In this document: positions 2,194 to 17,966 of the stretch, piece after piece | Position numbering within the stretch: the first letter of the stretch is position 1 | How the letters are laid out: each line of letters opens with the position of its first letter | From: a virus | Taxonomy: Duplodnaviria > Caudoviricetes | Reading direction: 5' to 3' (one strand) | Length of the DNA stretch: 44,943 nucleotides | Virus record (IMG/VR): IMGVR_UViG_3300024186_000074 | Coordinates: 1 to 44,943 of that record | Notes under the pieces: generated by a model | Database searches by the model: none | Seen by the model: the letters and a program-made list of their open reading frames with translations, nothing else | Told to the model about the DNA's origin: nothing | Made by a program: the position numbers and the translations under genes

Positions 2194-2202
2194 ATCACCT
2201 CC

Positions 2203-2549: not shown

Positions 2550-2773
2550 TTCTTGGGCTCCCCAGCCTTTATCTCCTCGATAAACGCCCGCCGGATTTGT
2601 TTGTTTGCCAGCAGCTGGAGCACGATTAGCTCGTTCCGGCTCTTCGTGTTTGTTTCCTTCGACACCCTTGTGAGTGCCCGGCTTAGTGCCCTTGGCAGGT
2701 ACACCGACCAAAAGTGCTTTGGGTATTTTGGTGACTCGATGTACAGAATCGCTTCTTCTAGGTCTGTCATCAC
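2546..2773 (-). CDS. Ribbon-helix-helix DNA-binding protein
   Basis: HFWSVYLPRALSRALTRVSKETNTKSRNELIV fits the RHH strand-helix-helix pattern; first gene after a strong promoter. Confidence 0.55.
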   Translation of the reverse strand: MMTDLEEAILYIESPKYPKHFWSVYLPRALSRALTRVSKETNTKSRNELIVLQLLANKQIRRAFIEEIKAGEPKK

Positions 2774-2885
2774 TTCCTTTCTTAGTCATAGTTTACTCCA
2801 TTTGGTTGTTTGTATGGTCGCGCCCAAGTGGCTGCCGATGTACCCAATTGGTTGTTGGTAATCCGCCACTTGGTTGCTGGAGGGT

Positions 2886-2944
2886 ATTATCGTTAAGTGA
2901 CTAATATTAGTCAAGGGTTTAATGCATAATTCCTGTGTATAACT
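2886..2944 (-). promoter_or_regulatory. Leftward sigma70/sigmaA-type promoter (TTGACT-17-GATAAT) with palindrome TGACTAATATTAGTCA and upstream DnaA-like box
   Basis: -35 at 2909-2914, -10 at 2886-2891, 16-bp palindrome at 2898-2913, TTATACACA on the minus strand. Confidence 0.7.
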
Positions 2945-3172
2945 CACTAAGATAAGGGGTGTGTGCCGGGGCGTAGGCCAGCCCGTGGGGCTACTGTGTG
3001 CCCCGGCCACCATGGGGCACGGCCATCGCCCCTGGTCAGCGGCCCGGGCAGCCACCAGACGGTATACGCCCTGGCTATACCTACCGAGCGGGGGCTCTCA
3101 AGCTGGCCGCACGGCCGCCGGCGGACGGCGAGCTCCTGGCCGCGAACCTACAAGCCACCTACAATACCCACC

Positions 3173-3859
3173 ATGCAGATACAGCCCCGTGACATGCAAC
3201 TGCTACGCCTTGTCGCGGAGTTCGGCTTCCTTGATGCGAGACAGATAAGAGAACTAATCTTCCATGACCTTAGTAGTGATACATCATCAGATAGAACGTT
3301 CAAGAGACTAGTGGAAGCTAAGCTACTCACCAGGATTGAACCGCCGCTCGTCGGCAACCGGCGAGGCGGCAACGGCGTCTACATTTACCGGCTTGGAGCT
3401 GCTGGAGTTAGCCTGTTTGGCGGAAGCAATCCGCATATCTCAACCATCTATCATTCCCTAGCGATTGCCGACCTCCATATGATGCTTGTCGGCCTGGAGC
3501 GGCAGGGACGCATCCAGGTCATGGCCTACCTAACCGAGCCGAGTACGCACCAGACAATCGGCGGCAAGGTGCTGAAGCCAGACTATTACGCGGAGATTCG
3601 GAACCGGCGCGGGGAAGACTTCGCCTTCATGTTTGAGATTGACATGGGCACCCAAAGCACGGCTATCCGTGGCAAGCTCGCCAACTACCGTGAGGCGGCG
3701 GCCGACGAAGACTGGCCGGACAATCAGTCAGTGGTGTTTGTGGCCATAGACGAGAAGCGCGTGCGGACGCTTGAGCTGATGCTTAGCCGTTGGGATAAGG
3801 AATGGCGGGAGGTTATCAGCGTCAGCACCGCTAGTGGAATTGCTGCTGTCCTATCTTAG
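3173..3859 (+). CDS. Replication-relaxation (Replic_Relax, PF13814-like; MOBC-related) relaxase
   Basis: N-terminal wHTH (RDMQLLRLVAEFGFLDARQI), HSLAIADL, LKPD and FEIDMGT motifs. Start at 3173 lies 7 nt after TACAAT, suggesting a leaderless mRNA. Confidence 0.8.
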   Translation: MQIQPRDMQLLRLVAEFGFLDARQIRELIFHDLSSDTSSDRTFKRLVEAKLLTRIEPPLVGNRRGGNGVYIYRLGAAGVSLFGGSNPHISTIYHSLAIADLHMMLVGLERQGRIQVMAYLTEPSTHQTIGGKVLKPDYYAEIRNRRGEDFAFMFEIDMGTQSTAIRGKLANYREAAADEDWPDNQSVVFVAIDEKRVRTLELMLSRWDKEWREVISVSTASGIAAVLS

Positions 3860-3916
3860 TTATACACAGGAATATATACAAAAGGTGTTGACTAATACAC
3901 CCTGTAAGCGCATACT
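3858..3916 (+). promoter_or_regulatory. Rightward promoter (TTGACT-17-CATACT) with upstream DnaA-like box TTATACACA
   Basis: -35 at 3888-3893, -10 at 3911-3916; mirror image of the 2886-2944 element. Confidence 0.7.
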
Positions 3917-4003
3917 TGGAAGTATCACCAAAAGCGGGCAACCAAGCAAAAGCAGGTAGCTGACCAGCGAGGCGAACTAAGCAACTAAACGGGGAATCAA
4001 GCA

Positions 4004-4150
4004 ATGAAACTATCAGCAAAACTAGAACTGGACGCCCAGACGTTGGCCTGGTACATCAACGGCGAAGACCTGGAAAGCGCCCTTGAATCGGCTTGCGATG
4101 GCCAGGTAAACGTCATACGGCGGGCTATCCAGATTAACGAGGGCGACTAG
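4004..4150 (+). CDS. Small hypothetical protein (48 aa, MKLSAKLELDAQ...), below ORF-track cutoff
   Basis: GGGGA RBS; first ORF after the promoter; abuts the next gene. Confidence 0.6.
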   Translation: MKLSAKLELDAQTLAWYINGEDLESALESACDGQVNVIRRAIQINEGD

Positions 4151-4152
4151 CC

Positions 4153-4428
4153 ATGACCATCACATTCAACCAAGAAGCCTCACCACTACTATGGCTCATC
4201 GAGGGCGTAGTCACCTACAAGGGAGATGAGTTCGCCTTCTGGTACGAGTACGACGGGCGCTGTGGAAATGGAGAAGAGCACTTTGAGGCCCGCCTAGAGT
4301 TTGATGACGGCGAGCCCAACGATGACTTTGACTTCGAGGCGTTAGCAGAGGCCTGCCTGGCGCAAGTCAGGAAAGGTATGCGCGTCACTAAGCAGCTAGG
4401 CATCGAGAAGGTTTTGGTAGCAGCATGA
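4153..4428 (+). CDS. Acidic hypothetical protein
   Basis: Coupled ORF in the early operon. Confidence 0.6.
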   Translation: MTITFNQEASPLLWLIEGVVTYKGDEFAFWYEYDGRCGNGEEHFEARLEFDDGEPNDDFDFEALAEACLAQVRKGMRVTKQLGIEKVLVAA

Positions 4429-4664
4429 CCGACATAACCAAAGACACCATAACCCGCCTGCGTGCCGCAGAAGCCCGCCTAACCTTCCGAGCCAACCAAC
4501 GAGACCACCTACAGCCTAGGACAGCTCCTGGGGCTCCGTATGGCCTTGTAGTGAAGCGTGGCCGGGCTAAGGGCATCACGAAAGATGAGATAGTCGTGCT
4601 CGTCCTGGCGCTGCTGGCCGGCATCCTGTTCGGGCTGGGGCATGTGGGATTGTTTAACTACTAG
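4425..4664 (+). CDS. Hypothetical protein with C-terminal transmembrane helix
   Basis: ATGA overlap; IVVLVLALLAGILFGLG segment. Confidence 0.6.
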   Translation: MTDITKDTITRLRAAEARLTFRANQRDHLQPRTAPGAPYGLVVKRGRAKGITKDEIVVLVLALLAGILFGLGHVGLFNY

Positions 4665-4673
4665 CCCCACCTA

Positions 4674-4710
4674 AAAGGAAATACCCTCCGTATGCTGGAG
4701 GGTATTTTTG
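4674..4710. terminator. Bidirectional intrinsic terminator
   Basis: AAATACCCTCC-loop-GGAGGGTATTT hairpin with U-tracts on both strands. Confidence 0.8.
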
Positions 4711-4847
4711 TGCTCGACAGTCCACAAAGAGAAAGTGGAGGGTAACAACAATCTTTCCGTAAGGCTTGATAAGTAGAACGCTATACGGTGTGGACTGCGG
4801 CGAGCGAACTTTCCCAAGGTGCTTAGGCTGGCGCTAACCAGACTACG
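4674..4847 (-). ncRNA. Candidate structured ncRNA (~170 nt)
   Basis: Extended -10 TGcTAGAAT at 4853-4861, nested inverted repeats, ends at the terminator. Confidence 0.5.
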
Positions 4848-4911
4848 CCTATATTCTAGCAAATTGCTCGTGCTAAATCAATCCGCTTGCAAGCAATAGG
4901 TGGTTGGGCTG

Positions 4912-5418
4912 CTACGCCCGCAGTAGACCCTTCTGTTTAAGCATGGCTCGCAGTCGCTCCTTGGCCGGGCTCGGTTCCCCCCTCTTAATTTCATTGCCCG
5001 CTTCTATTGTATTTCTATTGTTATTCTTGGTTGTGGTTTTTGAACGATTTTGTTCACTTTTTGAACGCCCGAACGCACTTTTTGAACGGTCTGCCGGCTG
5101 CGCGTTCAATTTTTGAACGTTATAGGGGTGATGGGCGAGAGCGTTATGGTAGATGTCAGTGGTGCGAACATGCTTTTGCTTGTCTATTTCTAGCAGGCCA
5201 CGCTTCACAAGGCGGTTCCGCATGTAGTAGACGGCCGACTTTCCCAAGCCGAGGTCTCTGGCTATGGCATCAAGGGACTTGTAGCACCAACCGCTACGTG
5301 ACAGGTAGTAGACCATGTCAAGGTAGACGTATTCCGCTACTGATATGTCGAGCTCCAAGCGCACGCTGTAGAGAATCGTGCAGAACTTGGGTGAGTGTTG
5401 GGTATTTTCTTCGTGCAT
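4912..5418 (-). CDS. HTH replication initiator (lambda O-like organisation)
   Basis: wHTH (WCYKSLDAIARDLGLGKSAVYYMRNRLVKRGLL); internal iterons; N/T/K-rich linker. Confidence 0.7.
   Translation of the reverse strand: MHEENTQHSPKFCTILYSVRLELDISVAEYVYLDMVYYLSRSGWCYKSLDAIARDLGLGKSAVYYMRNRLVKRGLLEIDKQKHVRTTDIYHNALAHHPYNVQKLNAQPADRSKSAFGRSKSEQNRSKTTTKNNNRNTIEAGNEIKRGEPSPAKERLRAMLKQKGLLRA
4985..5119. repeat. Putative replication origin: four TTTTTGAACG iterons plus adjacent AT-rich tract
   Basis: Copies at 5037, 5058, 5079 and 5110 (spacing 21, 21, 31 bp). Confidence 0.7.
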
Positions 5419-5620
5419 AAACATCCAGGAACGAAAACAGCCCATCCCTTGATAGAGTCGGGCTGAGCTGTTTTCGCTTTACAATTGTAAACGCTAACTC
5501 TATCTTAGCACCAATCATTATGAGGCATGAGCGTGCTTAGGTCAAGCTGACTGGGGTGCCCCTTGACCCTCCCGCCAACATATGCGTTACTGAAGCCATA
5601 ACTAAACGGAGACTTTAGGC

Positions 5621-6229
5621 ATGGCCGAACGGGTAATTAGAGAAACACTTAGCGACATGAGCGCGCAGGTACTACCAGAAACCGAGGTAGTGCAGCTGCA
5701 CGTAGACCACCCGGACATGCCAGAAGCACCTACGCACCGCCTGGACGTGAGTGGCGATGAGGCTGATGCGCTAAGGAAGCTAGCAGCTCCAGTGGTCCGG
5801 GTCGTAGTGGTGGCGCCCGGCCAAGAGGCTCCCGAGGTCTTGAGCGTACCTGTGGCCAAGTTCGACAGTCTGTTTAAGGCCGTTGGTAAGAAGGCTGTGG
5901 ACGTGCTGGTGGAAGCGCCGGTAGTCGGTAAGAAGGTCAGGCCGGAGAATGGTAACGGCGACACCGGCCGGGACTACGCAACCCTTGAGTGGGCAGGCAC
6001 CCCAAAGAAAGGCCGGGTCTCCCCAGCTGAGAAAGAGTTCATTCGGAACAACTTCGACGCCGTGCAGGAACGACTAGCCCGTGATGGCATGCGGAAGATA
6101 GACCTGAACAACCCAGAGCATGTTGCCAGATTCGGGTTGGAAGAAATCGCCAGCATGGCCAAGTTCTTAGCAGCCGGTCCGCCGGCGGAAGTCGCGGCTC
6201 AGGTTGAGCAGGTGGCGGCGCAGGCCTAG
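5621..6229 (+). CDS. Lsr2-like protein, paralogue A (N-terminal domain shared with 17003-17434; different C-terminal domain)
   Basis: SDMS..HPD..LDVSGDEA..EAP..FDSLF aligns by eye with the second paralogue; C-terminal DYATLEWAGTPKKGRVS. Confidence 0.55.
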   Translation: MAERVIRETLSDMSAQVLPETEVVQLHVDHPDMPEAPTHRLDVSGDEADALRKLAAPVVRVVVVAPGQEAPEVLSVPVAKFDSLFKAVGKKAVDVLVEAPVVGKKVRPENGNGDTGRDYATLEWAGTPKKGRVSPAEKEFIRNNFDAVQERLARDGMRKIDLNNPEHVARFGLEEIASMAKFLAAGPPAEVAAQVEQVAAQA

Positions 6230-6285
6230 GGTCATGAGGAAGGCAGCACTATGAACGTATATAACAGCTAATCGTTCCTTATCTG

Positions 6286-6367
6286 AACAAACAAAGAGAC
6301 ACCCCGCTAAGGGTGTCTCTCCAGCTGGCCAGCTGCATAGCGGGGATATCCCCGGCTAAGTGCAGCA
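6286..6367 (-). ncRNA. Candidate small RNA (~80 nt) with its own promoter and terminator
   Basis: TGcTATACT at 6373-6381, long 5' hairpin, terminator GAGACACCC-loop-GGGTGTCTC-TTTGTTT. Confidence 0.55.
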
Positions 6368-6400
6368 AGACCAGTATAGCACGCCGTTAACCGCGGCGTG

Positions 6401-6455
6401 CTTTCCACATGTGCATAACTTTAGCATTGTATTACATGCAACAAACATGTATTAT
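6401..6455 (+). promoter_or_regulatory. Promoter TTGTAT-17-TATTAT with two DnaA-like boxes upstream
   Basis: CTTTCCACA at 6401-6409 and TGTGCATAA at 6410-6418; -35 at 6427, -10 at 6450. Confidence 0.6.
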
Positions 6456-6464
6456 ACCTAAAGC

Positions 6465-6716
6465 ATGAAAAGACGAGACGATACCCACTACCTAACCAAA
6501 GAACGTAAGGACAACGACACCCTTAGGGACGTGCTAGCCGCACTACTGGAGCGGCCAGGAATGTCCATCCGGGAAGCAAGCCGGCAGTCCGGGGTAGGCG
6601 CAGACAAGCTCTACCGGCTAAATAGCCACAGGCGCGTATTCTTCTCTCCCGAAGAGATTGTTGCGTTCGTGGCTGTCTACGGCCTCAAGCTGGAGCTTAC
6701 GGAGCTTGAGCCATGA
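6465..6716 (+). CDS. Cro/XRE-like HTH regulator
   Basis: MSIREASRQSGVGADKLYRL helix-turn-helix; first gene of the operon. Confidence 0.65.
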   Translation: MKRRDDTHYLTKERKDNDTLRDVLAALLERPGMSIREASRQSGVGADKLYRLNSHRRVFFSPEEIVAFVAVYGLKLELTELEP

Positions 6717-6970
6717 GCAGGCTGGACGACATCCTCTACAAGAACCAGATGGAGCACCTGATACAGGACGAGCCGAACTATGGCTTCTGCGAGACATGCC
6801 AAGAAATGGCTGACTTCAGATGTCACCGAGCTAATAAGTATTTGCCCTATGCCAAGCAGGAGCTAAAAGACCTGGTGCTGGAGCTAATGGACAGCTGCAA
6901 CGCTATCCATGAGAACGGCAATCCCTACATTGACGAAGTTCAGTTTAGCCAGAAGTTGGAGGAGCTATGA
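6713..6970 (+). CDS. Hypothetical protein (CxxC)
   Basis: ATGA-coupled ORF. Confidence 0.6.
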   Translation: MSRLDDILYKNQMEHLIQDEPNYGFCETCQEMADFRCHRANKYLPYAKQELKDLVLELMDSCNAIHENGNPYIDEVQFSQKLEEL

Positions 6971-7073
6971 CCAGAACCCCCGCCGACTGGCTAGCCCGTA
7001 TCCGCCGGCATAATCGTAAGAGCTACTACACGCCTATTCCTTGGGAGGAGTGGGGGTGGGGGGAAGACACACT

Positions 7074-7484
7074 ATGAATACGGCCTCCCCAGAGCTTTGC
7101 CAGGAACTGTACGAGCTTAGTGGGTGGGATGACAAAGAGCTTGAAACCTATTCTGAGTTCGCTCATAAAACACATATAGAGACTGACAAAATGATGGTAC
7201 AGATACCCGCCTACAATCTCGGATATCTGCTGCGGAAACTGCCGGCGTTCGTAAACAGCACTAGTGGCCGCGGTTACAAACTGAAGTTGACCGCCAACGT
7301 GACAAGTAGCGGTGACAGAGAAGCCACAATCGGCTATGAGGCGCTTAGGCAGGTAAGCCGCGACCAAACAGCCGGATTCGAGTTCCTACATCACCCGAAG
7401 ATTCAGTTTCAACATGGAACGTTTGAGAATGCCACCTGCAAGCTAGCCATCGAACTAATCAAGGCCGGGGTGCTCAAGCCATGA
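7074..7484 (+). CDS. Hypothetical phage protein (YNLGYLLRKLP motif)
   Basis: Coupled ORF; probable start MNTASPELC. Confidence 0.65.
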   Translation: MNTASPELCQELYELSGWDDKELETYSEFAHKTHIETDKMMVQIPAYNLGYLLRKLPAFVNSTSGRGYKLKLTANVTSSGDREATIGYEALRQVSRDQTAGFEFLHHPKIQFQHGTFENATCKLAIELIKAGVLKP

Positions 7485-7612
7485 ACATCCTCTGCCGCCT
7501 ATTCGGCCACAACTGGTTCATAAAGAACCCCCGCCTTAAAGCCTGGCAGGACAAGCCAGAAAAGGGTGCACCATGTAAACGTAAGGGATGCAAAGGAGTT
7601 TTTGAGGGATGA
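7481..7612 (+). CDS. DUF1660-like prophage microprotein (MNILCRLFGHNW...CKRKGC)
   Basis: LCxLFGHxW signature; ATGA coupling on both sides; below ORF-track cutoff. Confidence 0.65.
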   Translation: MNILCRLFGHNWFIKNPRLKAWQDKPEKGAPCKRKGCKGVFEG

Positions 7613-7752
7613 GCGAAACCAAGACAACTTATCCATGCGGCTGCGTAGTAAAGACAACAGGTACTGGCACAATCTACGCCGGGACACTTACCAGCTACTG
7701 TGAAGCGCACAACCCCTTCAAGAACATCGCGCCGAAGGTGGAAACCATATGA
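7609..7752 (+). CDS. Microprotein (MSETKTTYPCGC...YCEAH)
   Basis: AAGGAG RBS; coupled start; 47 aa. Confidence 0.55.
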   Translation: MSETKTTYPCGCVVKTTGTGTIYAGTLTSYCEAHNPFKNIAPKVETI

Positions 7753-7785
7753 GTAAACGTAAGGGATGTGAGGAGGTGTTTTAGG

Positions 7786-7968
7786 ATGAGGAAACCTAAT
7801 CCTGGTTCTGAAGAAGCTGTCGCACTCGGTTGCGTCTGCCCAGTCCTTGATAACTGTCGCGGCCAGGGCGTGCCAGACGGTGAGGGCGGTGTTGCTTTCT
7901 GGTTTACGGCCAATTGCCCCCTACATGTGCGGAAATTACACGAACAGTTCTTGGAGGAGAAGTCATGA
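7786..7968 (+). CDS. Cys-rich phage protein (PNPGSEEAVALGCVCPVLDN...CPLH)
   Basis: GAGGAGGTG RBS; metal-binding-like motif. Confidence 0.7.
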   Translation: MRKPNPGSEEAVALGCVCPVLDNCRGQGVPDGEGGVAFWFTANCPLHVRKLHEQFLEEKS

Positions 7969-8300
7969 CTAACCCAACAGGGCAGACCGGTGTAGAGGGG
8001 CTACGAGCCGCGCTAGTTGACTCTGTAGATGGGCGACGGTTTGACACCGGATTTCCAGAACTGGATTACGAGGAAATTGAGTGGCTTGTTGATAACTGCC
8101 TACTACCACGAGTAAACCGGTTCCTGGAAGCCCACACATCAGCCGTTTTGGACAGAGTGGAGAAGGGCATGCCGGAAGTAATCGGCCCTAATATACCGAA
8201 CATCAAGGGAGCGGTTATGTACACCTACGCCAACAACATTCTTGCCGAGCAGCGCACCAAGTTCACTGACCTCATGAAGAAAGTGCGGGAGGAAATATGA
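7965..8300 (+). CDS. Hypothetical protein
   Basis: GGAGGAG RBS; ATGA overlap (MTNPTGQ). Confidence 0.6.
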   Translation: MTNPTGQTGVEGLRAALVDSVDGRRFDTGFPELDYEEIEWLVDNCLLPRVNRFLEAHTSAVLDRVEKGMPEVIGPNIPNIKGAVMYTYANNILAEQRTKFTDLMKKVREEI

Positions 8301-8301
8301 G

Positions 8302-8490
8302 ATGAACGAACCACTAATGTTTCACGCCGCCGTGAAGGCTGAAGACTGTGCACAATATGACGACATGCGTCTTAGGATGCTAATACGCAGGGCATGGGTG
8401 GATGCTACGGAGGCTCAGCTTACCCTTGACGAAGCATTGCACATCTTGGAGGACGAGGTGATGTACTTGCAGAAACGGATGAAGCCATGA
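8302..8490 (+). CDS. Hypothetical protein
   Basis: GGAGG RBS; operon position. Confidence 0.6.
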   Translation: MNEPLMFHAAVKAEDCAQYDDMRLRMLIRRAWVDATEAQLTLDEALHILEDEVMYLQKRMKP

Positions 8491-8795
8491 AAGCTCCCCA
8501 ACCTGATGATGAGCCAACTCTTGACGAACTGCTTGATTTACTGCAGTCGAACACCTCTCCACTAATCAGTTTCAATAGGCAGAGAATCCGCGACTACTTC
8601 GCCCGCCGGGAAGAGGTAGCTGTGTTGGCGGGGCAGCAGCAACTAGCAACCGACCTTATGGCTGCGCTGGATAAGCGCTGGCCAACACCTACGAGCGGCC
8701 ACAACACAGTTTGGGAAGAACTACGAAAGCTTGTTCCCGGAGCGACCCTCCAGGCTGAGCAGGTGAAGCTAAATAGGAGGGATGGTGAGAAATGA
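8487..8795 (+). CDS. Hypothetical protein
   Basis: ATGA coupling. Confidence 0.6.
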   Translation: MKAPQPDDEPTLDELLDLLQSNTSPLISFNRQRIRDYFARREEVAVLAGQQQLATDLMAALDKRWPTPTSGHNTVWEELRKLVPGATLQAEQVKLNRRDGEK

Positions 8796-9052
8796 GTGCT
8801 CATGGATGTGTAAGCCCGTGCCCCACCTGTAAGCAAGGCTGTATGATATGCCGCCCTTGCGACCTGATGAAGCATGGCAGCTTAGTCCCCGGTTTCCCAG
8901 CGTACCCGATACCCCTACATCCGAAAGGTGGTCAGAAATGTGACTTATGCGGCAGCACGGCCATAGACCACACAGAGATGCACTGTCAGATAAATCGCGC
9001 TTTCAAGAGACAGACCCACCCCACCACCAAACTTAAGGGAGACAGACCATGA
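8792..9052 (+). CDS. Cys-rich putative metal-binding protein
   Basis: Several CxxC pairs; ATGA coupling. Confidence 0.6.
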   Translation: MSAHGCVSPCPTCKQGCMICRPCDLMKHGSLVPGFPAYPIPLHPKGGQKCDLCGSTAIDHTEMHCQINRAFKRQTHPTTKLKGDRP

Positions 9053-9261
9053 GCAACCAACTTTACACACTGCAAATTCAGCTTGGCGACTACGAGCCCG
9101 GCAGAATTGTGGCCGACGATGACTCCGGTTGGATTATGGCGACATACGACTATCTAAACCACCGTGGCAGTGTCAAAGAGGGCGAACTGGCTATGTTGCT
9201 GGACTACGCCCGAGACAACAAGCTGACGAGCATCCTAGAGCCCTTTGGGGATGAATCATGA
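9049..9261 (+). CDS. Hypothetical protein
   Basis: ATGA coupling. Confidence 0.6.
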   Translation: MSNQLYTLQIQLGDYEPGRIVADDDSGWIMATYDYLNHRGSVKEGELAMLLDYARDNKLTSILEPFGDES

Positions 9262-9572
9262 GCCAACCCAACCAGCCAGACCCTATAGGCGCATGGATGG
9301 AATCGCTAGGCTACGAAAAAAGCAAGGTACGTGGCTACCGCAAGTGGTTCGACACACCAGAAGGTAGCAAGTTCTATTTCCTTACTGATGAGCAAGCCGC
9401 CTTCTTCTACAGTTTGATGCTGCGAGAGAGGCTAAGACAGGCGGAGCAGGACTACGACATTGCGGCCGACTGTTTCGAGGAAGGCCCAGATTTTAGGCTA
9501 TTCGTACGCAAGCTAGCGGCACAACGGTCTGCTCTTTTGGCCCAGCTCGTAGAAGCGGGAGGCAAGGCGTGA
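9258..9572 (+). CDS. Hypothetical protein
   Basis: ATGA coupling. Confidence 0.6.
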   Translation: MSQPNQPDPIGAWMESLGYEKSKVRGYRKWFDTPEGSKFYFLTDEQAAFFYSLMLRERLRQAEQDYDIAADCFEEGPDFRLFVRKLAAQRSALLAQLVEAGGKA

Positions 9573-9802
9573 TTGGCGTCTACATAACCATCAACGGCAG
9601 GCCCATCTTTGCCCGCACGGCGGTCAACCGCCTGCAGGAGCGGGGCGTATACGTTGCTGACGACGGCCTCGAAATCAAGCACAACCCGGACGAAGGTGCG
9701 GTCGCGCTGGCTATAAAGCTGCTGGAGACCATCCACTCGAACCCCGACAAGGAGACGCCGCCGGCTTGGGAGCGGTGGATGGGGCAGGGGAAGGAGGGGT
9801 AG
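9569..9802 (+). CDS. Hypothetical protein
   Basis: GGAGG RBS; GTGA coupling. Confidence 0.6.
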   Translation: MIGVYITINGRPIFARTAVNRLQERGVYVADDGLEIKHNPDEGAVALAIKLLETIHSNPDKETPPAWERWMGQGKEG

Positions 9803-10003
9803 ATGGCTAAAGTTCTATTGAAATACGACACGGCCGAGCAGTTCAACGGTCTCTACACAAATCTGTGGGGCTACCTGAACTCAGATAATTGCCATAAGAC
9901 CGGCTATGCCAGCATCACGATATACAAGAACCGCGAAACCGGCCTTACAACCTACTTCAAGGTGACCAAGGCTGGAACCGTCGTAGGGAGGGTGGCGCTA
10001 TGA
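9803..10003 (+). CDS. Hypothetical protein
   Basis: AAGGAGG RBS. Confidence 0.6.
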   Translation: MAKVLLKYDTAEQFNGLYTNLWGYLNSDNCHKTGYASITIYKNRETGLTTYFKVTKAGTVVGRVAL

Positions 10004-10383
10004 ACCCCACCTCAGATAAACCCGACACACCACAGGAGCGTAAGGAGCAGCTATGTCTAGTGTGCTTCCAGTTCTACACAGAGCCCAGTTTCGGTGGATT
10101 CGGGATATGCGGCCGCTGTGATACAGGCATAGCCCCTGACGGCCACAAGTACACGTATAACGAGATTCTACATCAGGGCCGCGTTAGGAAACACATAGAC
10201 CAGCTTCTCCAGCAAGCCCGCAGTGATGCTATTGGGGAGGCTCGTAAACAGGTTGCCGGCGAAATCTTTAATCTTGCCCACAAGTACGCCCAAGACGACA
10301 AGACAATGATGGGAGCCGAACAGCTACGCGCCTACCACTACTACAACGCGATTCATAAGATTGGAGATTTCAGTGGCAGATAG
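10000..10383 (+). CDS. Hypothetical protein with CxxC...CxxC zinc ribbon
   Basis: CLVC...CGRC; ATGA coupling. Confidence 0.6.
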   Translation: MNPTSDKPDTPQERKEQLCLVCFQFYTEPSFGGFGICGRCDTGIAPDGHKYTYNEILHQGRVRKHIDQLLQQARSDAIGEARKQVAGEIFNLAHKYAQDDKTMMGAEQLRAYHYYNAIHKIGDFSGR

Positions 10384-10478
10384 TCAACTAAAGCCCCCTG
10401 AGCAGGAGGAAGGGTAGGATGAGCCCGATAACCAAGCTCAAGGATAAGTCCAGGCTTCGCCAGATAGCCCGGCTCCTG

Positions 10479-11885
10479 CTAAGCTAGCCGCTCGAACCGA
10501 ACCAACTCTGGGTCAAAGCGCATACGGGTGCCGTTGTAGTACGGCTTCGATTGCCCCGGCAGCAGAATAATCTTACCCATGTCGCTGAGGCTGAGTATCT
10601 GCCGCCGAACTGTATCACTCCCACACTGTTCCCAAAGCTGGCGCAGCGTCTGTCCCAGGGGTACAAGTCCGCCGCCGAGCCGCGCACGGTTTATCCTATC
10701 AATCTCGCTGTCTATGGCCTTCAGTTCGGCCTCAGCCCGTAGCTTCGCCTTGCCCATCTGGTCGCGAGTCAGTAGGCCGGTGGCATAGTCATCCAGAATC
10801 TCATCCACGCGCTTGGCCTGCGTATCGCGCTGTCCTAGCAGTTCCTTGAGCCGACCGTCATCTTCTTGCCCCTCTTCCAGCAGGGCGGCCATAGCGGGGC
10901 TCTCCAGGTGCCACATGAGGGTTTCGACTACGTAGTGCTCCAGAGCGTCGGCATTGCGGGAGACACCATGGCAGGCGCGGCAGGTATATATGCGGCGTAG
11001 CGGGCGGTCCGCATGGTCGCGCTTGGTTTTGCCGTTGCAAGGTTCGCCACACACGCCACAGAAGACATTGCCGGTAAGTAGGAACTTGCGACCCTTCGGC
11101 CTGGTCGTCTTCGTCTTGTCCTGCTGCATGCGGATGGCCAGCTGGAGGCGCTGCCATGTTTCAGCGTCGAAGATGGCTTGCCAGTTGCCCGGGTACTCAA
11201 TGCCCTCATGCACGATGATGGCCGCGTAGGTTTTGCGCCTGAGCGTCATGACCAGAGTGCCGGGGTGCCAGTTATTACCCTCTGAGGTCTTGTGGCCGGC
11301 TGCTACAAGCCACTTGGTTACCTCATTGAAGGAGTGTCCCAGGATGATACGTCGGGCCATCTCACGGACTACCGCGGCTTCGTCCGGGCGGATGGTGTGG
11401 TCTTTCTCGTAGCCGTAGCAGCGGCGGCCGGCATGAGGTTTGCCGGACTGCGCCATCTGGCGGTTCGCCGCCTTGTGGCGTAGGCCTTTCTGGTCAGCCT
11501 CGTTACGGGCGACTGATGCCATGATGCGGGCGAGCAACTGGCCCATCGGGTTCGACAAGTCCAGGTCGCCGCTGACCGTGACAACCTTCACCTTGTTCGT
11601 GACTGCGACGTTGATGAGTTCCTCGAGGTCAGTCAGCTTCCGGGTGAGGCGGTCTACCGCCCAAGCTACGACTGCATCTACGTTGCCGGCTGCTACCAGT
11701 TGTAGAAGGCGCCCATAACCCTCGCGCTTGCCCTTGCTGGCCGACACGTCGTTGTCTTCGATTACCTCGATGACAGTCCAGCCGCGTTGCTCGCAGAGTT
11801 TCCTACAGGCTTCTAGCTGTCTGGTTACTGCTAGGCGGTCGCCGGTGGCGTCAAGACTCTGGCGGAGGTAGATTATTACATTCAT
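10479..11885 (-). CDS. int: Large serine recombinase (phage integrase)
   Basis: YLRQS catalytic motif, DNDVSAS, DRLTR, recombinase domain (YGY), zinc ribbon CGVC...CRAC, coiled coil. Confidence 0.92.
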   Translation of the reverse strand: MNVIIYLRQSLDATGDRLAVTRQLEACRKLCEQRGWTVIEVIEDNDVSASKGKREGYGRLLQLVAAGNVDAVVAWAVDRLTRKLTDLEELINVAVTNKVKVVTVSGDLDLSNPMGQLLARIMASVARNEADQKGLRHKAANRQMAQSGKPHAGRRCYGYEKDHTIRPDEAAVVREMARRIILGHSFNEVTKWLVAAGHKTSEGNNWHPGTLVMTLRRKTYAAIIVHEGIEYPGNWQAIFDAETWQRLQLAIRMQQDKTKTTRPKGRKFLLTGNVFCGVCGEPCNGKTKRDHADRPLRRIYTCRACHGVSRNADALEHYVVETLMWHLESPAMAALLEEGQEDDGRLKELLGQRDTQAKRVDEILDDYATGLLTRDQMGKAKLRAEAELKAIDSEIDRINRARLGGGLVPLGQTLRQLWEQCGSDTVRRQILSLSDMGKIILLPGQSKPYYNGTRMRFDPELVRFERLA

Positions 11886-11905
11886 ACCTTATGTCCATTT
11901 TACTT

Positions 11906-11961
11906 CTTGCGGTGCATATCGTCAACATCAATTCTGCCATGTGTCAAGTAGGTACCGCAAG
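11906..11961. other. Putative attP site
   Basis: 56-bp imperfect inverted repeat (CTTGCGGT...ACAT / ATGT...ACCGCAAG) just upstream of the integrase start. Confidence 0.6.
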
Positions 11962-12022
11962 CGTCAGTCGCCGGTCGTGACCATGCTCATCTACTTACGT
12001 CGATGGATTCGAGCGGTCGTTG

Positions 12023-12235
12023 CTATGCGATGAACGTGCCAATCCCTTGCCGCCCTTCAACCACCCCGGTCGCTCGCAGCACAGCAAGCGCTGTCTTGAC
12101 GACTGCTTCCGAGCACTCGTACTGAGCGGCCAGTTGCTTGATGGAGGGCAAACGGTCGCCGCGCTTCAGCGCTCCCGTGGCGGCACTATTTGTGATATCC
12201 GTCACAATTGTCTGGTAAAGCGGCATATGCGGCAT
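12023..12235 (-). CDS. Stand-alone GntR-family wHTH regulator
   Basis: LKRGDRLPSIKQLAAQYECSEAVVKTAL...GRQGIGTFI. Confidence 0.9.
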   Translation of the reverse strand: MPHMPLYQTIVTDITNSAATGALKRGDRLPSIKQLAAQYECSEAVVKTALAVLRATGVVEGRQGIGTFIA

Positions 12236-12441
12236 TAGCCCTCCTTGTCAATCCTAAGGAGAGCAGGTGGTCGCCGGGGTTGACTACGTTGGCCTAGCTA
12301 GCTACGGTGGCCATCAGTCCCGGCCGTTTCATGACTGAGCCCTGCAGCGGTCGGTTGACATCCAGCCACGTGCAGTGTTGGGGGGTGTGGGCGAACAGCG
12401 CCAGCTGCACGTGGCTGGAGTCTGTCTACGGAAGGATTGCG

Positions 12442-12660
12442 ATGTCCGGCCCGTTTGGCATAGAAGACCCGACTGGTGGCCTAAGCCCCCGCATGGTGAG
12501 GCACTACCTAGACCTCTACGTGCGCCACATGAACGTCGGCGTGCTTAAGCACTGCTTCTGGTGCCAGAAACACAACTGCGACGACTTCATGTTCGCCCGC
12601 GCAAGCCTTATTGCGGGCGGCCAGCAGCTTCCCGGCACTACGGAGTGGACTGGTGAGTAG
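12442..12660 (+). CDS. Hypothetical protein (H..CxxC..C) divergent from GntR
   Basis: GAAGG RBS; probable start MSGPFGIEDP. Confidence 0.6.
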   Translation: MSGPFGIEDPTGGLSPRMVRHYLDLYVRHMNVGVLKHCFWCQKHNCDDFMFARASLIAGGQQLPGTTEWTGE

Positions 12661-12862
12661 CAGCACCGCATCAGAGGAAGAGTTGTACGACCACCTCATG
12701 GCTGACGCTGGCGGTAGGTGCTACACGTGCCGCGAACACGAGCCTTGCGGCAGGCGACTAGCGCTTACTGCTGCTTTCTCTCGCGTGGGGGCACTACCCA
12801 GACGTCAGCCCGGGCGGGCGGGGTTGGCTCTGACTCATCAGCTGTCTCGCCTGCAGGTGTAG
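12653..12862 (+). CDS. Hypothetical protein (H..GRCYTC..PC..LPRRQPG)
   Basis: Overlapping GTG start; metal-binding motif reminiscent of actinomycete GntR-linked small genes. Confidence 0.6.
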   Translation: MSSSTASEEELYDHLMADAGGRCYTCREHEPCGRRLALTAAFSRVGALPRRQPGRAGLALTHQLSRLQV

Positions 12863-13181
12863 TTCCTCCCCTCAGCTGTCTCGCCTGAAAGCGAAGTTCC
12901 TTGGTCCTGATGCGCGGCGCCATCCCCGAACTAAGCCCTCGGGCAGGGGGAATCGTGCGGCTATCCGGTTCCTTGCCGTACTTCTGGTAGGCCGCTGAAC
13001 CAGACACGCCCAGCGCGGCACCAACCTCTGACCAACTGGCACCGGTGTCCTTAGCCCGGCGCGCCGTGGCGTCCAGCTCTTCGGCCAGGGCTTGGTAGCG
13101 CCGCCGGATGGCAAGCAACTCCTCCAGCACGGCGTAGTGGGCCGGTGCCGGTGTGTCTGCGTCCGCTGGCCTCCATGGCAT
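12765..13181 (-). CDS. Small HTH DNA-binding protein, actinobacterial type
   Basis: ARRAKDTGASWSEVGAALGVSGSAAYQKY helix-turn-helix. Confidence 0.7.
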   Translation of the reverse strand: MPWRPADADTPAPAHYAVLEELLAIRRRYQALAEELDATARRAKDTGASWSEVGAALGVSGSAAYQKYGKEPDSRTIPPARGLSSGMAPRIRTKELRFQARQLRGGTTPAGETADESEPTPPARADVWVVPPRERKQQ

Positions 13182-13422
13182 GTCAGCAGAGTCTACATGA
13201 AGCTAGCTGTGCCCGGCAGTAGGTCTTGGCTTACCCCTTGCCATGAAGGTGTCTTAAGGGCTACCGTTAAGCCAGCGGTAGACCCAAGCTTGAAACCCAA
13301 GGACTGGGCTGCAGGCGGCAGCTACTTGACTCCTCCACAGTGACGGCTTAAAGCGCCCGGGTTCAAGGGCGCACCGTTAAGTTGACTTAAGACCTACCTA
13401 GCTTTAAGGGAGGTGAACAGCC

Positions 13423-13722
13423 GTGACTGGTGACCTTGCCCGCTTCGCGAAGCAGGAGATGTCCCCGCGCAAGCAGGACCGTGCGGTGGCGGCTGCGGCC
13501 AAGCTCGTGTTCGACGAGGTACGCCTGGCCGCGCTTAAGGCCGACGGAGCCATCGGGCTCGCCGGCCACATCATGGAGGGGATGACCGGCCTCGATGAGC
13601 GCCGCCAGACCCTCAGCACTGGTGACCGTGCCAACGACATCATGCTCACCGAGATTCAGATTGCCGCCCTCCGTGCGGTTAAGGCCATCCAGGCCAAGCT
13701 CTACAACCAGTGGGGGATGTGA
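13423..13722 (+). CDS. Helical hypothetical protein, first gene of the coupling-protein operon
   Basis: GGGAGGTG RBS with GTG start. Confidence 0.7.
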   Translation: MTGDLARFAKQEMSPRKQDRAVAAAAKLVFDEVRLAALKADGAIGLAGHIMEGMTGLDERRQTLSTGDRANDIMLTEIQIAALRAVKAIQAKLYNQWGM

Positions 13723-13931
13723 TGGTTTTCCTCTACGTCATGTCGTCCTTGAACTTCTTGCTTCTGCTCTGGGTCATGGTGCTGGTGGCGTTGTCCAAGC
13801 AGACGCCGCCGCCCACCAAGCTGGAAGTCGAACTCGAGCAAGTGCAGTACGAGTTCAACAAGGTGTTCAACGAGGCGACCAAGCTGATGAACCAGAAGGG
13901 CGGCGCCCCGCCCAAGCACCTGAAGCAGTAG
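13719..13931 (+). CDS. Small single-pass membrane protein
   Basis: N-terminal hydrophobic helix; GTGA overlap. Confidence 0.6.
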   Translation: MMVFLYVMSSLNFLLLLWVMVLVALSKQTPPPTKLEVELEQVQYEFNKVFNEATKLMNQKGGAPPKHLKQ

Positions 13932-13942
13932 GGGGCAAGCTT

Positions 13943-14548
13943 ATGTCCCAGATATATGACGACCTACTCCGTATCCGTGAGTTGCTGTCTGACCCGGCGC
14001 GCTGGGCTAAGTTCACGCTTCACGACACCGCCGGCAGCAAGGGCGACCGTTGGTGCCTTGTCGGGGCGGCACAGCACGCGGTCGCCACGACGGATGACGA
14101 CCCTGGCAACGTCGTAGAAGCTTTCTTCGCCAAGACGCTCGAGGAACGGTTACTGGAGGCTGACACCACCCAGCCCCGTGACCAGAGTCAGCGGCTCAAC
14201 GAAGTACTCAAGGCTATCGCCCGCGAGTTGCCGGCATCTGGCCGCCAACCAAGGGCGGCCATCCCGGTGTACAACAACGCGGCGGCTACGACTCACCAGG
14301 ACGTTATCAACATCCTGGACGCGGCTATCATCAGCCAGCTTCCGGCTATCGCTGCTGGTAACCCGCGCGCTTCTATCCCCCGCTACAACGACGCACCACA
14401 GCGTACACACGCGGATGTCATGCGGATGCTGGACGCGGCCATCGAGCGTTACCGCAACGAAGACGACCAGGCTGCCGCCAAGGCTATCCAGGCGGTAGAG
14501 GCTCCGCGGCCGATGACTGCCATACAGATACTAAGGAGGCAGGCGTGA
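13943..14548 (+). CDS. DUF6197-like protein with internally duplicated C-terminal motif
   Basis: W...WCLVGAA and two copies of I..YN(N/D)...TH.DV...LDAAI. Confidence 0.6.
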   Translation: MSQIYDDLLRIRELLSDPARWAKFTLHDTAGSKGDRWCLVGAAQHAVATTDDDPGNVVEAFFAKTLEERLLEADTTQPRDQSQRLNEVLKAIARELPASGRQPRAAIPVYNNAAATTHQDVINILDAAIISQLPAIAAGNPRASIPRYNDAPQRTHADVMRMLDAAIERYRNEDDQAAAKAIQAVEAPRPMTAIQILRRQA

Positions 14549-14709
14549 TTGTCCGCCGGCTTATCAGTGCGTTGGCCATCATCATCCTGTTGGCCATCGC
14601 TATCCAGCAGATTTGGAAGGTTGTGGTGCTTTTCCTTCCGCTGCTCATCGCCGCTTGCATTGTACTGTTCCTCGTTGGCGGTTGGTTCTACTACAGCCGC
14701 CGCGAGTAG
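14545..14709 (+). CDS. Small two-helix membrane protein (MIVRRLISALAIIILL...), below ORF-track cutoff
   Basis: AAGGAGG RBS; GTGA overlap; 54 aa, strongly hydrophobic. Confidence 0.7.
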   Translation: MIVRRLISALAIIILLAIAIQQIWKVVVLFLPLLIAACIVLFLVGGWFYYSRRE

Positions 14710-14732
14710 CTAATGTGGCATCCTTAAATAGG

Positions 14733-16997
14733 ATGCTTGCATACACTCTCCTGCTACTTGTTCCGCTCTTGCCCTTGGGGGGTGTGTTTGTGGCTCGGGC
14801 TATCATCCAGAATGACCTGGATAAGCGTAAGACGTACCGCGTGTACTTCCCCACGGATGTCGAACCGGAAGCGGTAGCCGGTTGGCTCCGCACCCTCTCT
14901 GGCACGCTCCGCCCTGAGTCGGCCGTACTGCGGCTGATGCAGGTCTGCCCGAGCATCGTGCTTGAGACCATCTCCATAGAAGGCCTGTTCGTCCACCGGC
15001 TCAAGATTCCCCACCAGTACGAGTCACGCATCCGGCCGCCGCTCGAGCACTTGGTGCCGGGCATCAGCTTGGTACCCGAAGACAACAAGCTGCAGTTCAA
15101 GTGGAAGTACGCCGTAGAGATGGGGATGCGGGGCGCGCACCGGCCGCTCAACATCCCCGACCTCTACCACAAGAGCCACGACTTACTGGCTCGGTTCCAG
15201 CACTTGGCTACCGGCGAAGCGCTCATCATGCAGTGGGTCATCTCGCCGGCCATGCCCGAACGCAAGCCGGTACATGGCGAGTCACAGAGCCTGGAGGGCG
15301 GCGCCTGGTCGTACCTGACCGGCGCACCCGCCGGCCACGATGAAATCAACGCCCGGCGTGACAAGCTCGACGACAACAACCTGAACGCCATCGTGCGCAT
15401 CGGCGCCCAGGCCGGTACCAAGGCCAGGGCACGGCACATGGTGATGGACGTCAAGTCAAGCATCAAGGCTACGGCCGGGTCACAGCAGCACTTCTACGAC
15501 CGCATGGTTGGTTGGGAGGAGCTGCAGCGGCGGATAGACCGGGCGACTAACCCAGCCATGCGGCACATCCGGCTGACCGTAACCGAGATGACCGCGCTCA
15601 TGGGCTGGCGCCTTGGTGATGTGGATATAGCCGGTATGCCGGCACCGCTAGCCCGGCGGTTGGCGGCACCGCGGAGCGTCCTGGATGCAGGACGGGTAAT
15701 CGGGGTGTCTAACTTCTCTGGCCGCGAGCGGAACATCGCCATCGGCCACATGGAGACCCGCTACCACACCTACGTCATCGGACCAACCGGCTTCGGTAAG
15801 ACGACCGAGCTCTACAACATGATGTTCCAGGACATCCGTGACGGGCACGGCATCTTCATGCTGGAGAGCAAGGGCGGCCACGAAGGCTTGTACCAGATGG
15901 CTCTTAACGCCATACCGCCCGAGCGTATCAACGACGTCATCCTGCTCGACCTGACGGACTTCTACCACCCCATCGGGCTCAACGTGCTCGACCAGCTGCA
16001 TGTCTCCATCGACGAACTGGTGGGCGTCCTTAAGGGTCCGCACGGCAGCGGGCCATGGATAGACATGGTATTGCCCGGCGGCATCCGCACGGCACAGGCA
16101 GCCGGACTGACCATCATGGACGTACCGCACCTGCTCATGCCCACCTCTGACGAAGTTACCTGGCGGGACGCCATTGTCCGTAGCCTCAAGAGCGAAGACC
16201 TACGGGCGTTCTGGCAGCGCATCGACAAGGAAGGGAAGTACGGCGGGGAAAAGGTAAGCCAGTCGGCATGGGACAGGCTCCAGCTGCTGGCTAACCGGCC
16301 GGAAATCGGCCACATCCTCGGGCAGGCTAAGTCGTCCTTCAACATGGACGATGTGGTCAGCGGTAAGAAGATACTGCTGGCCAACCTTTCCGGCGTACCC
16401 AAGCAAAGTGCCTCGATGATGGGCACGCTGCTCTTCAACCTCATGACCCAGTCGTTACGCCGGGTGCCGCCGGAAGCTAACCGCTCCATGATGGTCTACC
16501 TGGACGAGTTCCAGCACTTCATGGATATGTCGGTAGACATGCCCGAGATGTTGTCCGAGGTGCGCTCACGCGGCGCGTCGCTCACCATGGCGCACCAGTA
16601 CCTCGGGCAGCTGGACAAGCCGGTAGAGGAGGCCGTCATGGCTAACGCCGGCACCAAGATAGCTTTCCAGCTGAACGCCAGTGACGCCCGCATCATGGCA
16701 GCAAACATCGGGAAGCCGCTGACACCCGAAGACCTGCAGCGGCAAGGCAGGTTCGAGGCCATCGCGAGTGTCTACACGCCGCACGGTAAGAGCGGCCCGC
16801 TAACCATGAACACCCTGGCGCCGACCCAGGGATATGGCTTGGGCATCCACGTGGTTGAGGCGTCCCGCGCCAAGTATGGCCGTCCTATCGAGCAAGTGCA
16901 GGAAGCGATGAAGCAACGGCGCATCGCTGACGTAGTACCCATCCGTAAGCGCCCCATCCGCAAGCTTGAGGACTTCGGTGAGGCAAACAACCAGTAA
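14733..16997 (+). CDS. Type IV coupling protein-like ATPase (VirD4/TraG/TraM-recognition, HerA-FtsK superfamily)
   Basis: N-terminal TM helix, Walker A HTYVIGPTGFGKT, Walker B YLDEFQHF, LSEVRSRG..LTMAHQYLGQL...NAGTKIAF. Confidence 0.85.
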   Translation: MLAYTLLLLVPLLPLGGVFVARAIIQNDLDKRKTYRVYFPTDVEPEAVAGWLRTLSGTLRPESAVLRLMQVCPSIVLETISIEGLFVHRLKIPHQYESRIRPPLEHLVPGISLVPEDNKLQFKWKYAVEMGMRGAHRPLNIPDLYHKSHDLLARFQHLATGEALIMQWVISPAMPERKPVHGESQSLEGGAWSYLTGAPAGHDEINARRDKLDDNNLNAIVRIGAQAGTKARARHMVMDVKSSIKATAGSQQHFYDRMVGWEELQRRIDRATNPAMRHIRLTVTEMTALMGWRLGDVDIAGMPAPLARRLAAPRSVLDAGRVIGVSNFSGRERNIAIGHMETRYHTYVIGPTGFGKTTELYNMMFQDIRDGHGIFMLESKGGHEGLYQMALNAIPPERINDVILLDLTDFYHPIGLNVLDQLHVSIDELVGVLKGPHGSGPWIDMVLPGGIRTAQAAGLTIMDVPHLLMPTSDEVTWRDAIVRSLKSEDLRAFWQRIDKEGKYGGEKVSQSAWDRLQLLANRPEIGHILGQAKSSFNMDDVVSGKKILLANLSGVPKQSASMMGTLLFNLMTQSLRRVPPEANRSMMVYLDEFQHFMDMSVDMPEMLSEVRSRGASLTMAHQYLGQLDKPVEEAVMANAGTKIAFQLNASDARIMAANIGKPLTPEDLQRQGRFEAIASVYTPHGKSGPLTMNTLAPTQGYGLGIHVVEASRAKYGRPIEQVQEAMKQRRIADVVPIRKRPIRKLEDFGEANNQ

Positions 16998-17002
16998 GGA
17001 GC

Positions 17003-17434
17003 GTGGTGGCCGTGGCTACCGGTGTCATCAGTGACCTGTCGGGCAGGCTCGTCCAAGAGCGCGTCCGCCTGGTCGTAAAGCAGCACCCCGACCTCGAACA
17101 AGCCGTGGTGCTGGACATGGATGAGTCTGAGGCTGACGGCATCAAGGGTTCGGCCGGCAACTTCGTCGTGGTGGAGCTGGTGCGCGACGGCGAGGCACCC
17201 GTATCCATGGTGCTCGAGCTCAAGGCGTTCAACGGGCTGTTCAAGGGCGACCCCATCGACGCCTTGGAGTCGGCGCCCAAGGCTAACGGCCTGTTGAGTG
17301 GGGCGGCCAAGCGCGACCCCAACTATCTCCAGGCTGTGAGGGAGTGGGGACGCGCTAATGGGTGGCCAGAACTGAGCGATAGGGGAAGGGTTCCGGCCGC
17401 AGTGGAGAAGGCGTATGGACAAGCAGTCGCCTAA
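17003..17434 (+). CDS. lsr2: Lsr2-family nucleoid-associated protein, paralogue B
   Basis: C-terminal AVREWGRANGWPELSDRGRVPAAVEKAY carries the RGR AT-hook; AAGGAG RBS. Confidence 0.8.
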   Translation: MVAVATGVISDLSGRLVQERVRLVVKQHPDLEQAVVLDMDESEADGIKGSAGNFVVVELVRDGEAPVSMVLELKAFNGLFKGDPIDALESAPKANGLLSGAAKRDPNYLQAVREWGRANGWPELSDRGRVPAAVEKAYGQAVA

Positions 17435-17561
17435 CCAGCAAACATGCACCATTTACCACGCACAACGGCGGCCCGGCGGTGAGTGGTCGTGCTGTCGCTG
17501 TCGGAAGGACTTCAAGACTAAGGACGACCTTAGGTCTCACGTGTGGGCGACTTTCAATTGA
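17415..17561 (+). CDS. C2H2-like zinc-finger microprotein 1 (48 aa)
   Basis: GGAGAAGG RBS; CCRCRKDFKTKDDLRSH. Confidence 0.55.
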   Translation: MDKQSPNQQTCTIYHAQRRPGGEWSCCRCRKDFKTKDDLRSHVWATFN

Positions 17562-17576
17562 CGGGAGGTGAGTACC

Positions 17577-17741
17577 TTGCCACTGCCTTGGTTCCTGGAC
17601 AAGAAGACGAGCCACAAGCGTGGCTGTCGTAGGAGCGACGGGACGTTCGTAAAGTCGATGGGACGTTGGCACTGCTCGAACTGCAAGCGGCAGTTTGGCA
17701 GCCAGCGGTCGTGGTTCAACCACACTATCAGCATCTTCTAA
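17577..17741 (+). CDS. C2H2-like zinc-finger microprotein 2 (54 aa)
   Basis: GGGAGGTG RBS with TTG start; CSNCKRQFGSQRSWFNH. Confidence 0.6.
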   Translation: MPLPWFLDKKTSHKRGCRRSDGTFVKSMGRWHCSNCKRQFGSQRSWFNHTISIF

Positions 17742-17769
17742 GCCGCCGTAGAAGCCATCTGAGACGTTT

Positions 17770-17801: not shown

Positions 17802-17836
17802 GTGGCTAAAGCCGACCACGCGGCTTCCTGGAGCGT

Positions 17837-17965: not shown

Positions 17966-17966
17966 G

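Follow-up and report, generated by a model that had tools for sequence, protein, structure and literature searches.

Integrative and mobilizable elements (IMEs) of the class termed IME_Class_8 combine a serine integrase with a MobC/PF13814 relaxase and a VirD4 coupling protein, and have no type IV secretion system of their own (Coluzzi et al. 2017, PMC5357655). MOBC relaxases consist of an N-terminal winged helix and a PD-(D/E)XK domain (PMC12857230, PMC3424549), and TraX of pAD1 and MobC of CloDF13, which have this build, are paired with VirD4-family proteins (PMC12857230). Among cultured phages, the Bacillus phages CP-51, JL, Shanette and S4-1, as well as Novomoskovsk/Bolokhovo (PMC9658697), carry an ATPase together with a Replic_Relax gene. 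Here we describe the IMG/VR virus record IMGVR_UViG_3300024186_000074, analysed over its whole length of 44,943 nucleotides (the window), in which a predicted MOBC-type relaxase, a VirD4/TrwB-like ATPase and a serine integrase share one molecule with virion genes. A first-pass annotation of the window had suggested a hybrid between a phage and a mobilizable element; at the genome level this is supported, as the pair recurs in many phages, and the integrase, which that annotation had missed, forms a third part of the module. The window belongs to a real and conserved group of phage-IME hybrids that does not stem from a recent cassette and is new as a variant.

The relaxase gene (3173-3859, + strand), already picked out as a Replic_Relax-type gene, matches PF13814 with an E-value of 4.6e-19 (69.7 bits against a cut-off of 25.3). 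Its product has a winged helix at residues 1-85 followed by a PD-(D/E)XK nuclease domain, with the motif PD..E-x-D..K..Y at residue 136. The structure model, with a predicted local distance difference test score (pLDDT) of 89.7, gave winged helix-turn-helix (HTH) matches with Z-scores up to 9.6 and weak matches of the nuclease domain to the XisH/EndoMS/MunI fold. The gene is preceded by a GC-rich leader (2960-3172, + strand) with a −10 element TACAAT (3160-3165) 7 nt 5′ of the ATG, a predicted leaderless promoter. A leaderless start is likewise predicted by comparison with relatives, as YANNNT is found 5-8 nt upstream of the start in 23 of 24 relaxase genes compared with 5 of 70 genes of six other families, and a Shine-Dalgarno-like motif precedes 0/24 of the former compared with 26/70 of the latter. 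Leaderless starts are common in Actinomycetota, and neither they nor low GC are host-diagnostic alone. The gene is flanked by AT-rich divergent promoter-like sites, a leftward sigma70-type site read from the sequence as TTGACT-17-GATAAT (2886-2914, − strand) and a rightward site, TTGACT-17-CATACT, 3′ of the relaxase (3888-3916, + strand). Within the leader, CTGGTCAG at 3032 (−141 from the relaxase start) is a candidate only, for either an origin of transfer (oriT) or an operator. Of 27 relaxase leaders, 10 contain a CTGACC[AT]G-like motif (shuffles: mean 0.7, maximum 4), six times at −56/−57, and the similar copy at −141 in the window is not among these ten. In addition, 13 of 27 phages have a perfect DnaA box, TTATCCACA, 200-450 nt 5′ of the relaxase gene (shuffles at most 4); the window has none. 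The predicted fold of the leader (−56.3 kcal/mol) had no shuffle control and was not used.

The ATPase gene (14733-16997, + strand) lies 10.9 kb from the relaxase gene. In keeping with its earlier description as a membrane-anchored VirD4-like protein, it matches TraG-D_C (3e-7) and TrwB_AAD_bind (3.7e-6) above the Pfam cut-offs and has a Walker A motif (GPTGFGKT), a Walker B motif (YLDEF) and a hydrophobic N-terminal anchor helix. Its model (pLDDT 94.7) finds TrwB as the nearest fold (Z 29.7, root-mean-square deviation 4.3, 372 residues aligned), followed by the VirB4 C-domain (Z 28.2), DndH (28.0), DotL (26.3), HerA (24.6), defence HerA proteins (19-21) and FtsK (19.1). A loose full-length alignment with TrwK/VirB4 (565 residues over 1-714, root-mean-square deviation 13.8) suggests that the modelled alpha/beta N-domain may be VirB4-like. 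We also considered a role in defence or superinfection exclusion, with the two proteins acting as a nuclease-ATPase pair of the HerA/DndH kind, which would fit a PD-(D/E)XK nuclease together with a ring ATPase, their position in the lysogeny region and the DndH and defence HerA scores. This is improbable, given that TrwB ranks above HerA and the ATPase thus does not group with HerA/defence ATPases, that a membrane anchor and small membrane genes accompany the ATPase, that the closest non-phage homologues are IME pairs and that the two genes are 11 kb apart. A predicted complex of ATPase and relaxase scored 0.01, which gives no verdict and was not used as evidence.

The ATPase operon begins with a gene for a 99-amino-acid protein (13423-13722, + strand), which has 46% identical homologues 5′ of the ATPase in two related records (G003 and G015). 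It is followed by a small protein that has a single hydrophobic segment, at its N-terminus (13722-13931, + strand), with a similar layout 5′ of the ATPase in relatives, a DUF6197 protein (13943-14548, + strand; PF19698) with no homologue in the other records and, directly 5′ of the ATPase, a 54-amino-acid hydrophobic protein with two predicted membrane helices (14545-14709, + strand). The two hydrophobic open reading frames (ORFs) account for the pair of small membrane proteins noted earlier, and at least eight relatives have a hydrophobic ORF of 52-69 amino acids directly 5′ of the ATPase. An Lsr2 nucleoid-associated protein (17003-17434, + strand; PF23359, E 5e-8) lies downstream. The GC content at third codon positions (GC3) is higher in the operon (0.73-0.83) than in the virion genes (0.58-0.73). 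Profile searches of the 64 window ORFs gave no match to VirB4, VirB6 or pilin, as the first-pass annotation had also noted of VirB4, pilin and other mating-pair genes, and no match to an FtsK/SpoIIIE-type Tra (PF01580). Among the 45 largest protein clusters of the relatives there was no shared cluster of mating-pair genes. Some ATPase homologues (P0020, P0034, P0035, P0045, P0066 and P0084) are 200-350 amino acids longer, match in two stretches and are possibly intein-bearing.

The window is a circular molecule of 44.8 kb, with a 126-nt terminal repeat at 7-132 and 44818-44943, on which terS, terL, portal, major capsid, adaptor and serine integrase each have a family match by profile search. 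Judged by these genes it is a podovirus-like temperate tailed phage from soil; the tail is taken to be podo-like because no tape measure was found among the window ORFs. Of the virion and lysis gene set earlier called intact, the virion part is backed by family matches, whereas the lysis part is inferred, as the likely endolysin (18140-18931) matches only phrog_12298, 'membrane associated protein'. The window has about 56% GC, with a GC step at 10.4-17.8 kb, and this step, together with breaks between unitigs at about 13.66 and 17.4 kb, might point to an assembly chimera. To assess this we used two sequencing runs, X1, which is possibly the source of the window and hence not independent, and X2, from a second study. 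In run X1 the depth was even (9.5-11.2×) across the window, a single 33,872-nt unitig covered 24944-44943 plus 7-13674, and two further unitigs overlapped it and each other across 13653-20000. In run X2 a relative, mostly 90-99% alike, yielded a contig spanning 17444-18257, which connects the last part of the ATPase operon with the inside of the lysin gene; that run gave no coverage of the virion module, and such holes prove nothing. Because terL, capsid, relaxase and integrase lie on one unitig, and with no coverage break, a bridging contig from a second study and like content in 21 other records, the chance of a chimera is negligible. The X2 relative skips several small early ORFs at 6400-10400 (joints e.g. 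at 7051-7475 and 9572-10017), a variable cassette-like region.

We refer to the relaxase, the ATPase and their associated genes as the kit. Relaxase scans of viral records gave 14 and then 12 further records, with the ATPase in 9/14 and 4/12, and an ATPase scan added 8 new viral records, 5 of them with a relaxase. The records missing one gene are incomplete, and the ATPase mostly lies at the prophage edge. Among related viral records with a completeness of 90% or more, 9/9 have both genes, a count that includes G021, with an adjacent IME-type pair, and G009, in which the record end cuts the ATPase. Relaxase, ATPase and terL occur together in 21 records besides the window, which confirms that viral relatives carry both genes with a terminase. 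The terL proteins of 16 of these records are on average only 21% identical (range 8-86%), and the virion modules are unrelated, including siphoviruses with a tape measure and several podo types. In the 32 records compared, which had been selected on the kit, the commonest genes were those for the relaxase (29), Lsr2 (29), the ATPase (25), an ArdC-like protein (25), the serine integrase (24) and DUF3846 (20). ArdC-like proteins are known from conjugative plasmids. In a quick tree, 25 of 26 phage relaxases formed one clade with a Shimodaira-Hasegawa-like approximate likelihood ratio (SH-aLRT) of 100 and a stem of 1.31, the relaxase of G021 lying outside it. Relaxase and ATPase distances co-varied weakly (Mantel test, rho 0.38, p 0.043), and those of the ATPase and the neighbouring integrase did not (rho −0.07). 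Record G014 (175 kb, 33% GC, 23% identity) was excluded from the group analyses; the phage rows of the tree were without G006, G013, G020, G029 and G043, and the Mantel test was without G020, G040c4, G009, G043 and records without a full serine integrase, terL or ATPase. No close relative was present among 50,697 INPHARED phage records, and scanning viral contigs with patterns from single proteins gave no match.

These data also bear on the possibility that the kit is a passenger, an IME that entered a phage genome and rides along to its own benefit only. Such an origin is suggested by the raised GC3 of the ATPase operon, by the absence of the kit from the nearest capsid relatives and by G021, with its adjacent pair and outlying relaxase. 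We nevertheless give it little weight, since in the other phages the relaxase lies several to many kb from the ATPase, amid early genes, the phage relaxases form one long-stemmed clade and the integrase belongs to the phage itself, at whose edge it lies. The earlier argument against one recent cassette insertion, from the ~11 kb between the genes and the place of the relaxase between early promoters, is borne out.

A scan of GTDB genomes located the hosts of related elements. It returned 17 relaxase loci in 16 genomes, with the ATPase in all (16/16 genomes). Nine loci were of the phage type (32-37% identity) and came from Arthrobacter, Cryobacterium, Kocuria, Ornithinimicrobium, Naasia (with a duplicate assembly), Rhodococcus (two contigs) and two metagenome-assembled genomes (MAGs), one from Actinomycetota and one labelled Acidobacteria. 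The latter (G035, L108:154-1017), with flanks of 70-80% GC and a T2SSF/Tad-type gene, is probably a mis-binned actinomycete contig. The phage-type prophages are about 40-44 kb long and have 44-63% GC within chromosomes of 64-80% GC. In Arthrobacter (L091:4906-5595, L093:14096-15079) and Kocuria (L094:5445-6098, L096:12008-13009) they split comM beside dprA, which shows true integration; this interruption may disable host transformation. At its right edge, the Arthrobacter prophage carries a gene with a TIR domain (L093:13025-13951), which is possible defence cargo. The two Naasia copies were rejected as a sign of active mobility, since their flanks are 100% identical, and were treated as an assembly duplicate. 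Prophages of this type are rare, with none in 400 other Actinomycetales sampled. The remaining eight loci had a distant form (23-30% identity), in which the relaxase adjoins the ATPase in 7/8, an integrase is mostly next and VirB genes are absent except in Actinoplanes. Streptomyces and Actinomadura had this non-phage form only, and given the hosts of the close relatives (the six named genera) the earlier suggestion of intra-mycelial transfer is not upheld. The group consists of uncultured temperate phages residing in chromosomes of Actinobacteria, and the host of the window phage is likely to be a member of the Actinomycetota as well.

Given the genes, the folds, the joint conservation of the pair across unrelated virion modules and the integration of relatives in actinomycetes, we favour a reading, with a probability of roughly 0.55, in which the prophage, once excised in an actinobacterial lysogen, would be mobilized by the kit into a neighbouring cell in contact with it, in a conjugation-like, capsid-independent manner and without lysis. 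The integrase would excise a phage circle; the relaxase, expressed from its own predicted leaderless promoter, would nick an origin probably located in the GC-rich leader; and the membrane-anchored ATPase would export the strand. A minimal pore might be built by the small membrane proteins together with the VirB4-like N-domain, or these might attach to a type IV channel borrowed from elsewhere, and the recipient would re-circularize the DNA and then integrate it or make virions. Several observations weigh against mobilization. The window has no VirB4, VirB6 or wall hydrolase to build a channel, and no ArdC. No oriT was established in the leaders, the CTGACC[AT]G-like motif being present in only 10/27. 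With the VirB4 C-domain and DndH (Z about 28) scoring near TrwB, the fold is not specific for a coupling protein. The Mantel p value of 0.043 is one of six tests and would fail correction, G022 has a broken ATPase and no relaxase was found in it, and G042 has a frameshifted ATPase. Finally, in the Bacillus phages the FtsK-type ATPase and the Replic_Relax gene were read as plasmid replication/segregation genes (PMC9658697).

This last point leads to a role outside transfer, in which the phage, having switched host to Actinomycetota, would rely on the relaxase to initiate rolling-circle or plasmid-state replication and on the ATPase to segregate or tether its circle. Such a role would agree with the PHROG label 'replication initiation by nicking', with the inclusion of plasmid replication proteins in the PF13814 family (PMC3424549), with the Bacillus phage precedent and with a relaxase among early genes and no channel genes. 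We regard it as unlikely, although it deserves to be taken seriously: a separate initiator-like gene is present, a DnaA box precedes the relaxase in 13/27 relatives, the ATPase is TrwB-like rather than FtsK-like, and the elements integrate, with kit-less relatives doing without either gene.

These kit-less relatives are three circular phages with capsids 77-86% identical to that of the window and the same gene order, but without relaxase and ATPase and with no match to the serine integrase, Lsr2 or DUF3846; their GC content is 35-50% compared with about 56% in the window. All three, and 17/32 kit-bearing records, encode a small glycine-rich protein that we take to be of KGG type, which in a comparison of two groups only matched 5/5 Saccharimonadia and 0/5 actinomycete genomes. 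The window capsid matched 1/401 Saccharimonadia genomes, as a free 40-kb contig, and the siphovirus tail tube of the group matched 3/401 compared with 0/400 other Actinomycetales. One tail-tube match is an intact-looking prophage with a tyrosine integrase and no kit in an 893-kb Saccharimonadia chromosome contig (G205 C1, about 276-311 kb, L200-L203), between topA/VirD4 and dprA. ESM Atlas held viral capsid clusters only and gave no host. The virion genes, whose link to Saccharimonadia the first-pass annotation had missed, probably descend from phages of Saccharimonadia. In addition, IME relaxases of Saccharimonadia and Actinomycetota are intermixed in the tree, and relaxase GC is 0.63-0.73 in 11/25 Saccharimonadia loci (10/24 without L162, from an unpublished genome), host GC being seen for G043 only (52-62%). 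The Saccharimonadales chromosome of G043 (C9 16182-21045 and 71939-76713; L146, L147) carries two high-GC elements composed of an ATPase, a relaxase and a serine recombinase, of which one lies close to a Shedu gene.

A tentative extension, which we consider possible but doubtful, is that these are two-host phages that lysogenize Actinomycetota and build virions in, or enter via, Saccharibacteria epibionts, the kit moving the genome across the epibiont-host junction. The same data are explained by nothing more than an earlier change of host in which the kit was acquired. A direct link to Saccharimonadia is weakened by the absence of the KGG gene, ArdC and the DnaA box from the window, by the failure to find a phage-clade relaxase in 301 Saccharimonadia genomes and by the low identity (only 25-52%) of the shared virion proteins there.

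The remaining window genes are as follows. An HTH replication-initiator-like protein, separate from the relaxase (4912-5445, − strand; phrog_428 E 1e-10, phrog_678), is followed by an Lsr2-family paralogue (5621-6229, + strand), which clusters with the Lsr2 proteins of relatives, a cluster member matching PF11774 and PF23359. The large serine integrase (10479-11885, − strand) matches PF00239, PF07508 and PF13408 as well as phrog_95 (E 1e-97); no att core emerged from a search for exact repeats, and the attP of the window was not located. A GntR-type HTH regulator (12023-12235, − strand; PF00392 E 8e-14) and an HTH DNA-binding protein (12765-13181, − strand; phrog_686) follow. The putative lysis genes (17837-18931, − strand) comprise two small hydrophobic ORFs and the likely endolysin. 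The podo-like virion and packaging module (19581-44056, − strand), with the same order in the three kit-less phages, includes capsid (34439-35494), portal (36497-38491), terL (42268-43701) and terS (43673-44056). Within it, GroEL and GroES-like genes (39189-41747) have an HNH-AP2 gene between them, and both chaperonin genes are found in the three kit-less relatives. A DUF3846 protein (44068-44466, − strand; PF12957) travels with the kit.

If mobilization is correct, these phages would have two transmission routes, by virion and by a conjugation-like process, and would escape receptor limits on host range; a categorically new lifestyle is plausible. DNA might possibly also pass to or from Saccharibacteria living on actinobacterial hosts. 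The system offers a handle on how certain phages are encountered by Saccharibacteria and Actinobacteria alike and on whether DNA crosses the epibiont-host junction. It is practical to test because lysogens exist among cultured strains that are non-pathogenic, namely Arthrobacter sp. AL12, Cryobacterium algoricola and Naasia lichenicola.

Searches of the open-access literature turned up no account of this phage group; phages of this kind might be listed in the supplementary files of PMC10746230. That paper (2023) hints at phages meeting both Saccharibacteria and Actinobacteria partners, but from spacer evidence only, and its main text is without 'relax' or 'conjug'. In contrast with integrative and conjugative elements, the window lacks VirB4 and mating-pair genes among its 64 ORFs, and it differs from the actinomycete integrative and conjugative elements, which use an FtsK/SpoIIIE Tra and a Rep (PMC3218068), in having no PF01580 match and a low FtsK score (Z 19.1). 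Compared with TraX and MobC, the present relaxase is phage-borne and its activity is predicted, and no direct-repeat array like the pAD1 bind site was seen (PMC12857230). The Bacillus phage proteins are only 21-26% identical over part of their length, and their genes are adjacent and belong to another host phylum. Hodor conjugative megaplasmids likewise spread a prophage by conjugation, but there it rides a plasmid of >300 kb, whereas here the phage encodes its own mobilization genes (PMC12934698). A close parallel is IME_Class_8 (PMC5357655), with the same three signature proteins, whose layout the distant GTDB relatives share as compact ATPase-relaxase-integrase elements; that class is compact and has no virion genes, whereas here the genes are dispersed in phages of 37-60 kb and the relaxases form a separate clade. 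The kit of the window would thus appear to work like an IME, but being dispersed in a phage it is not filed as one.

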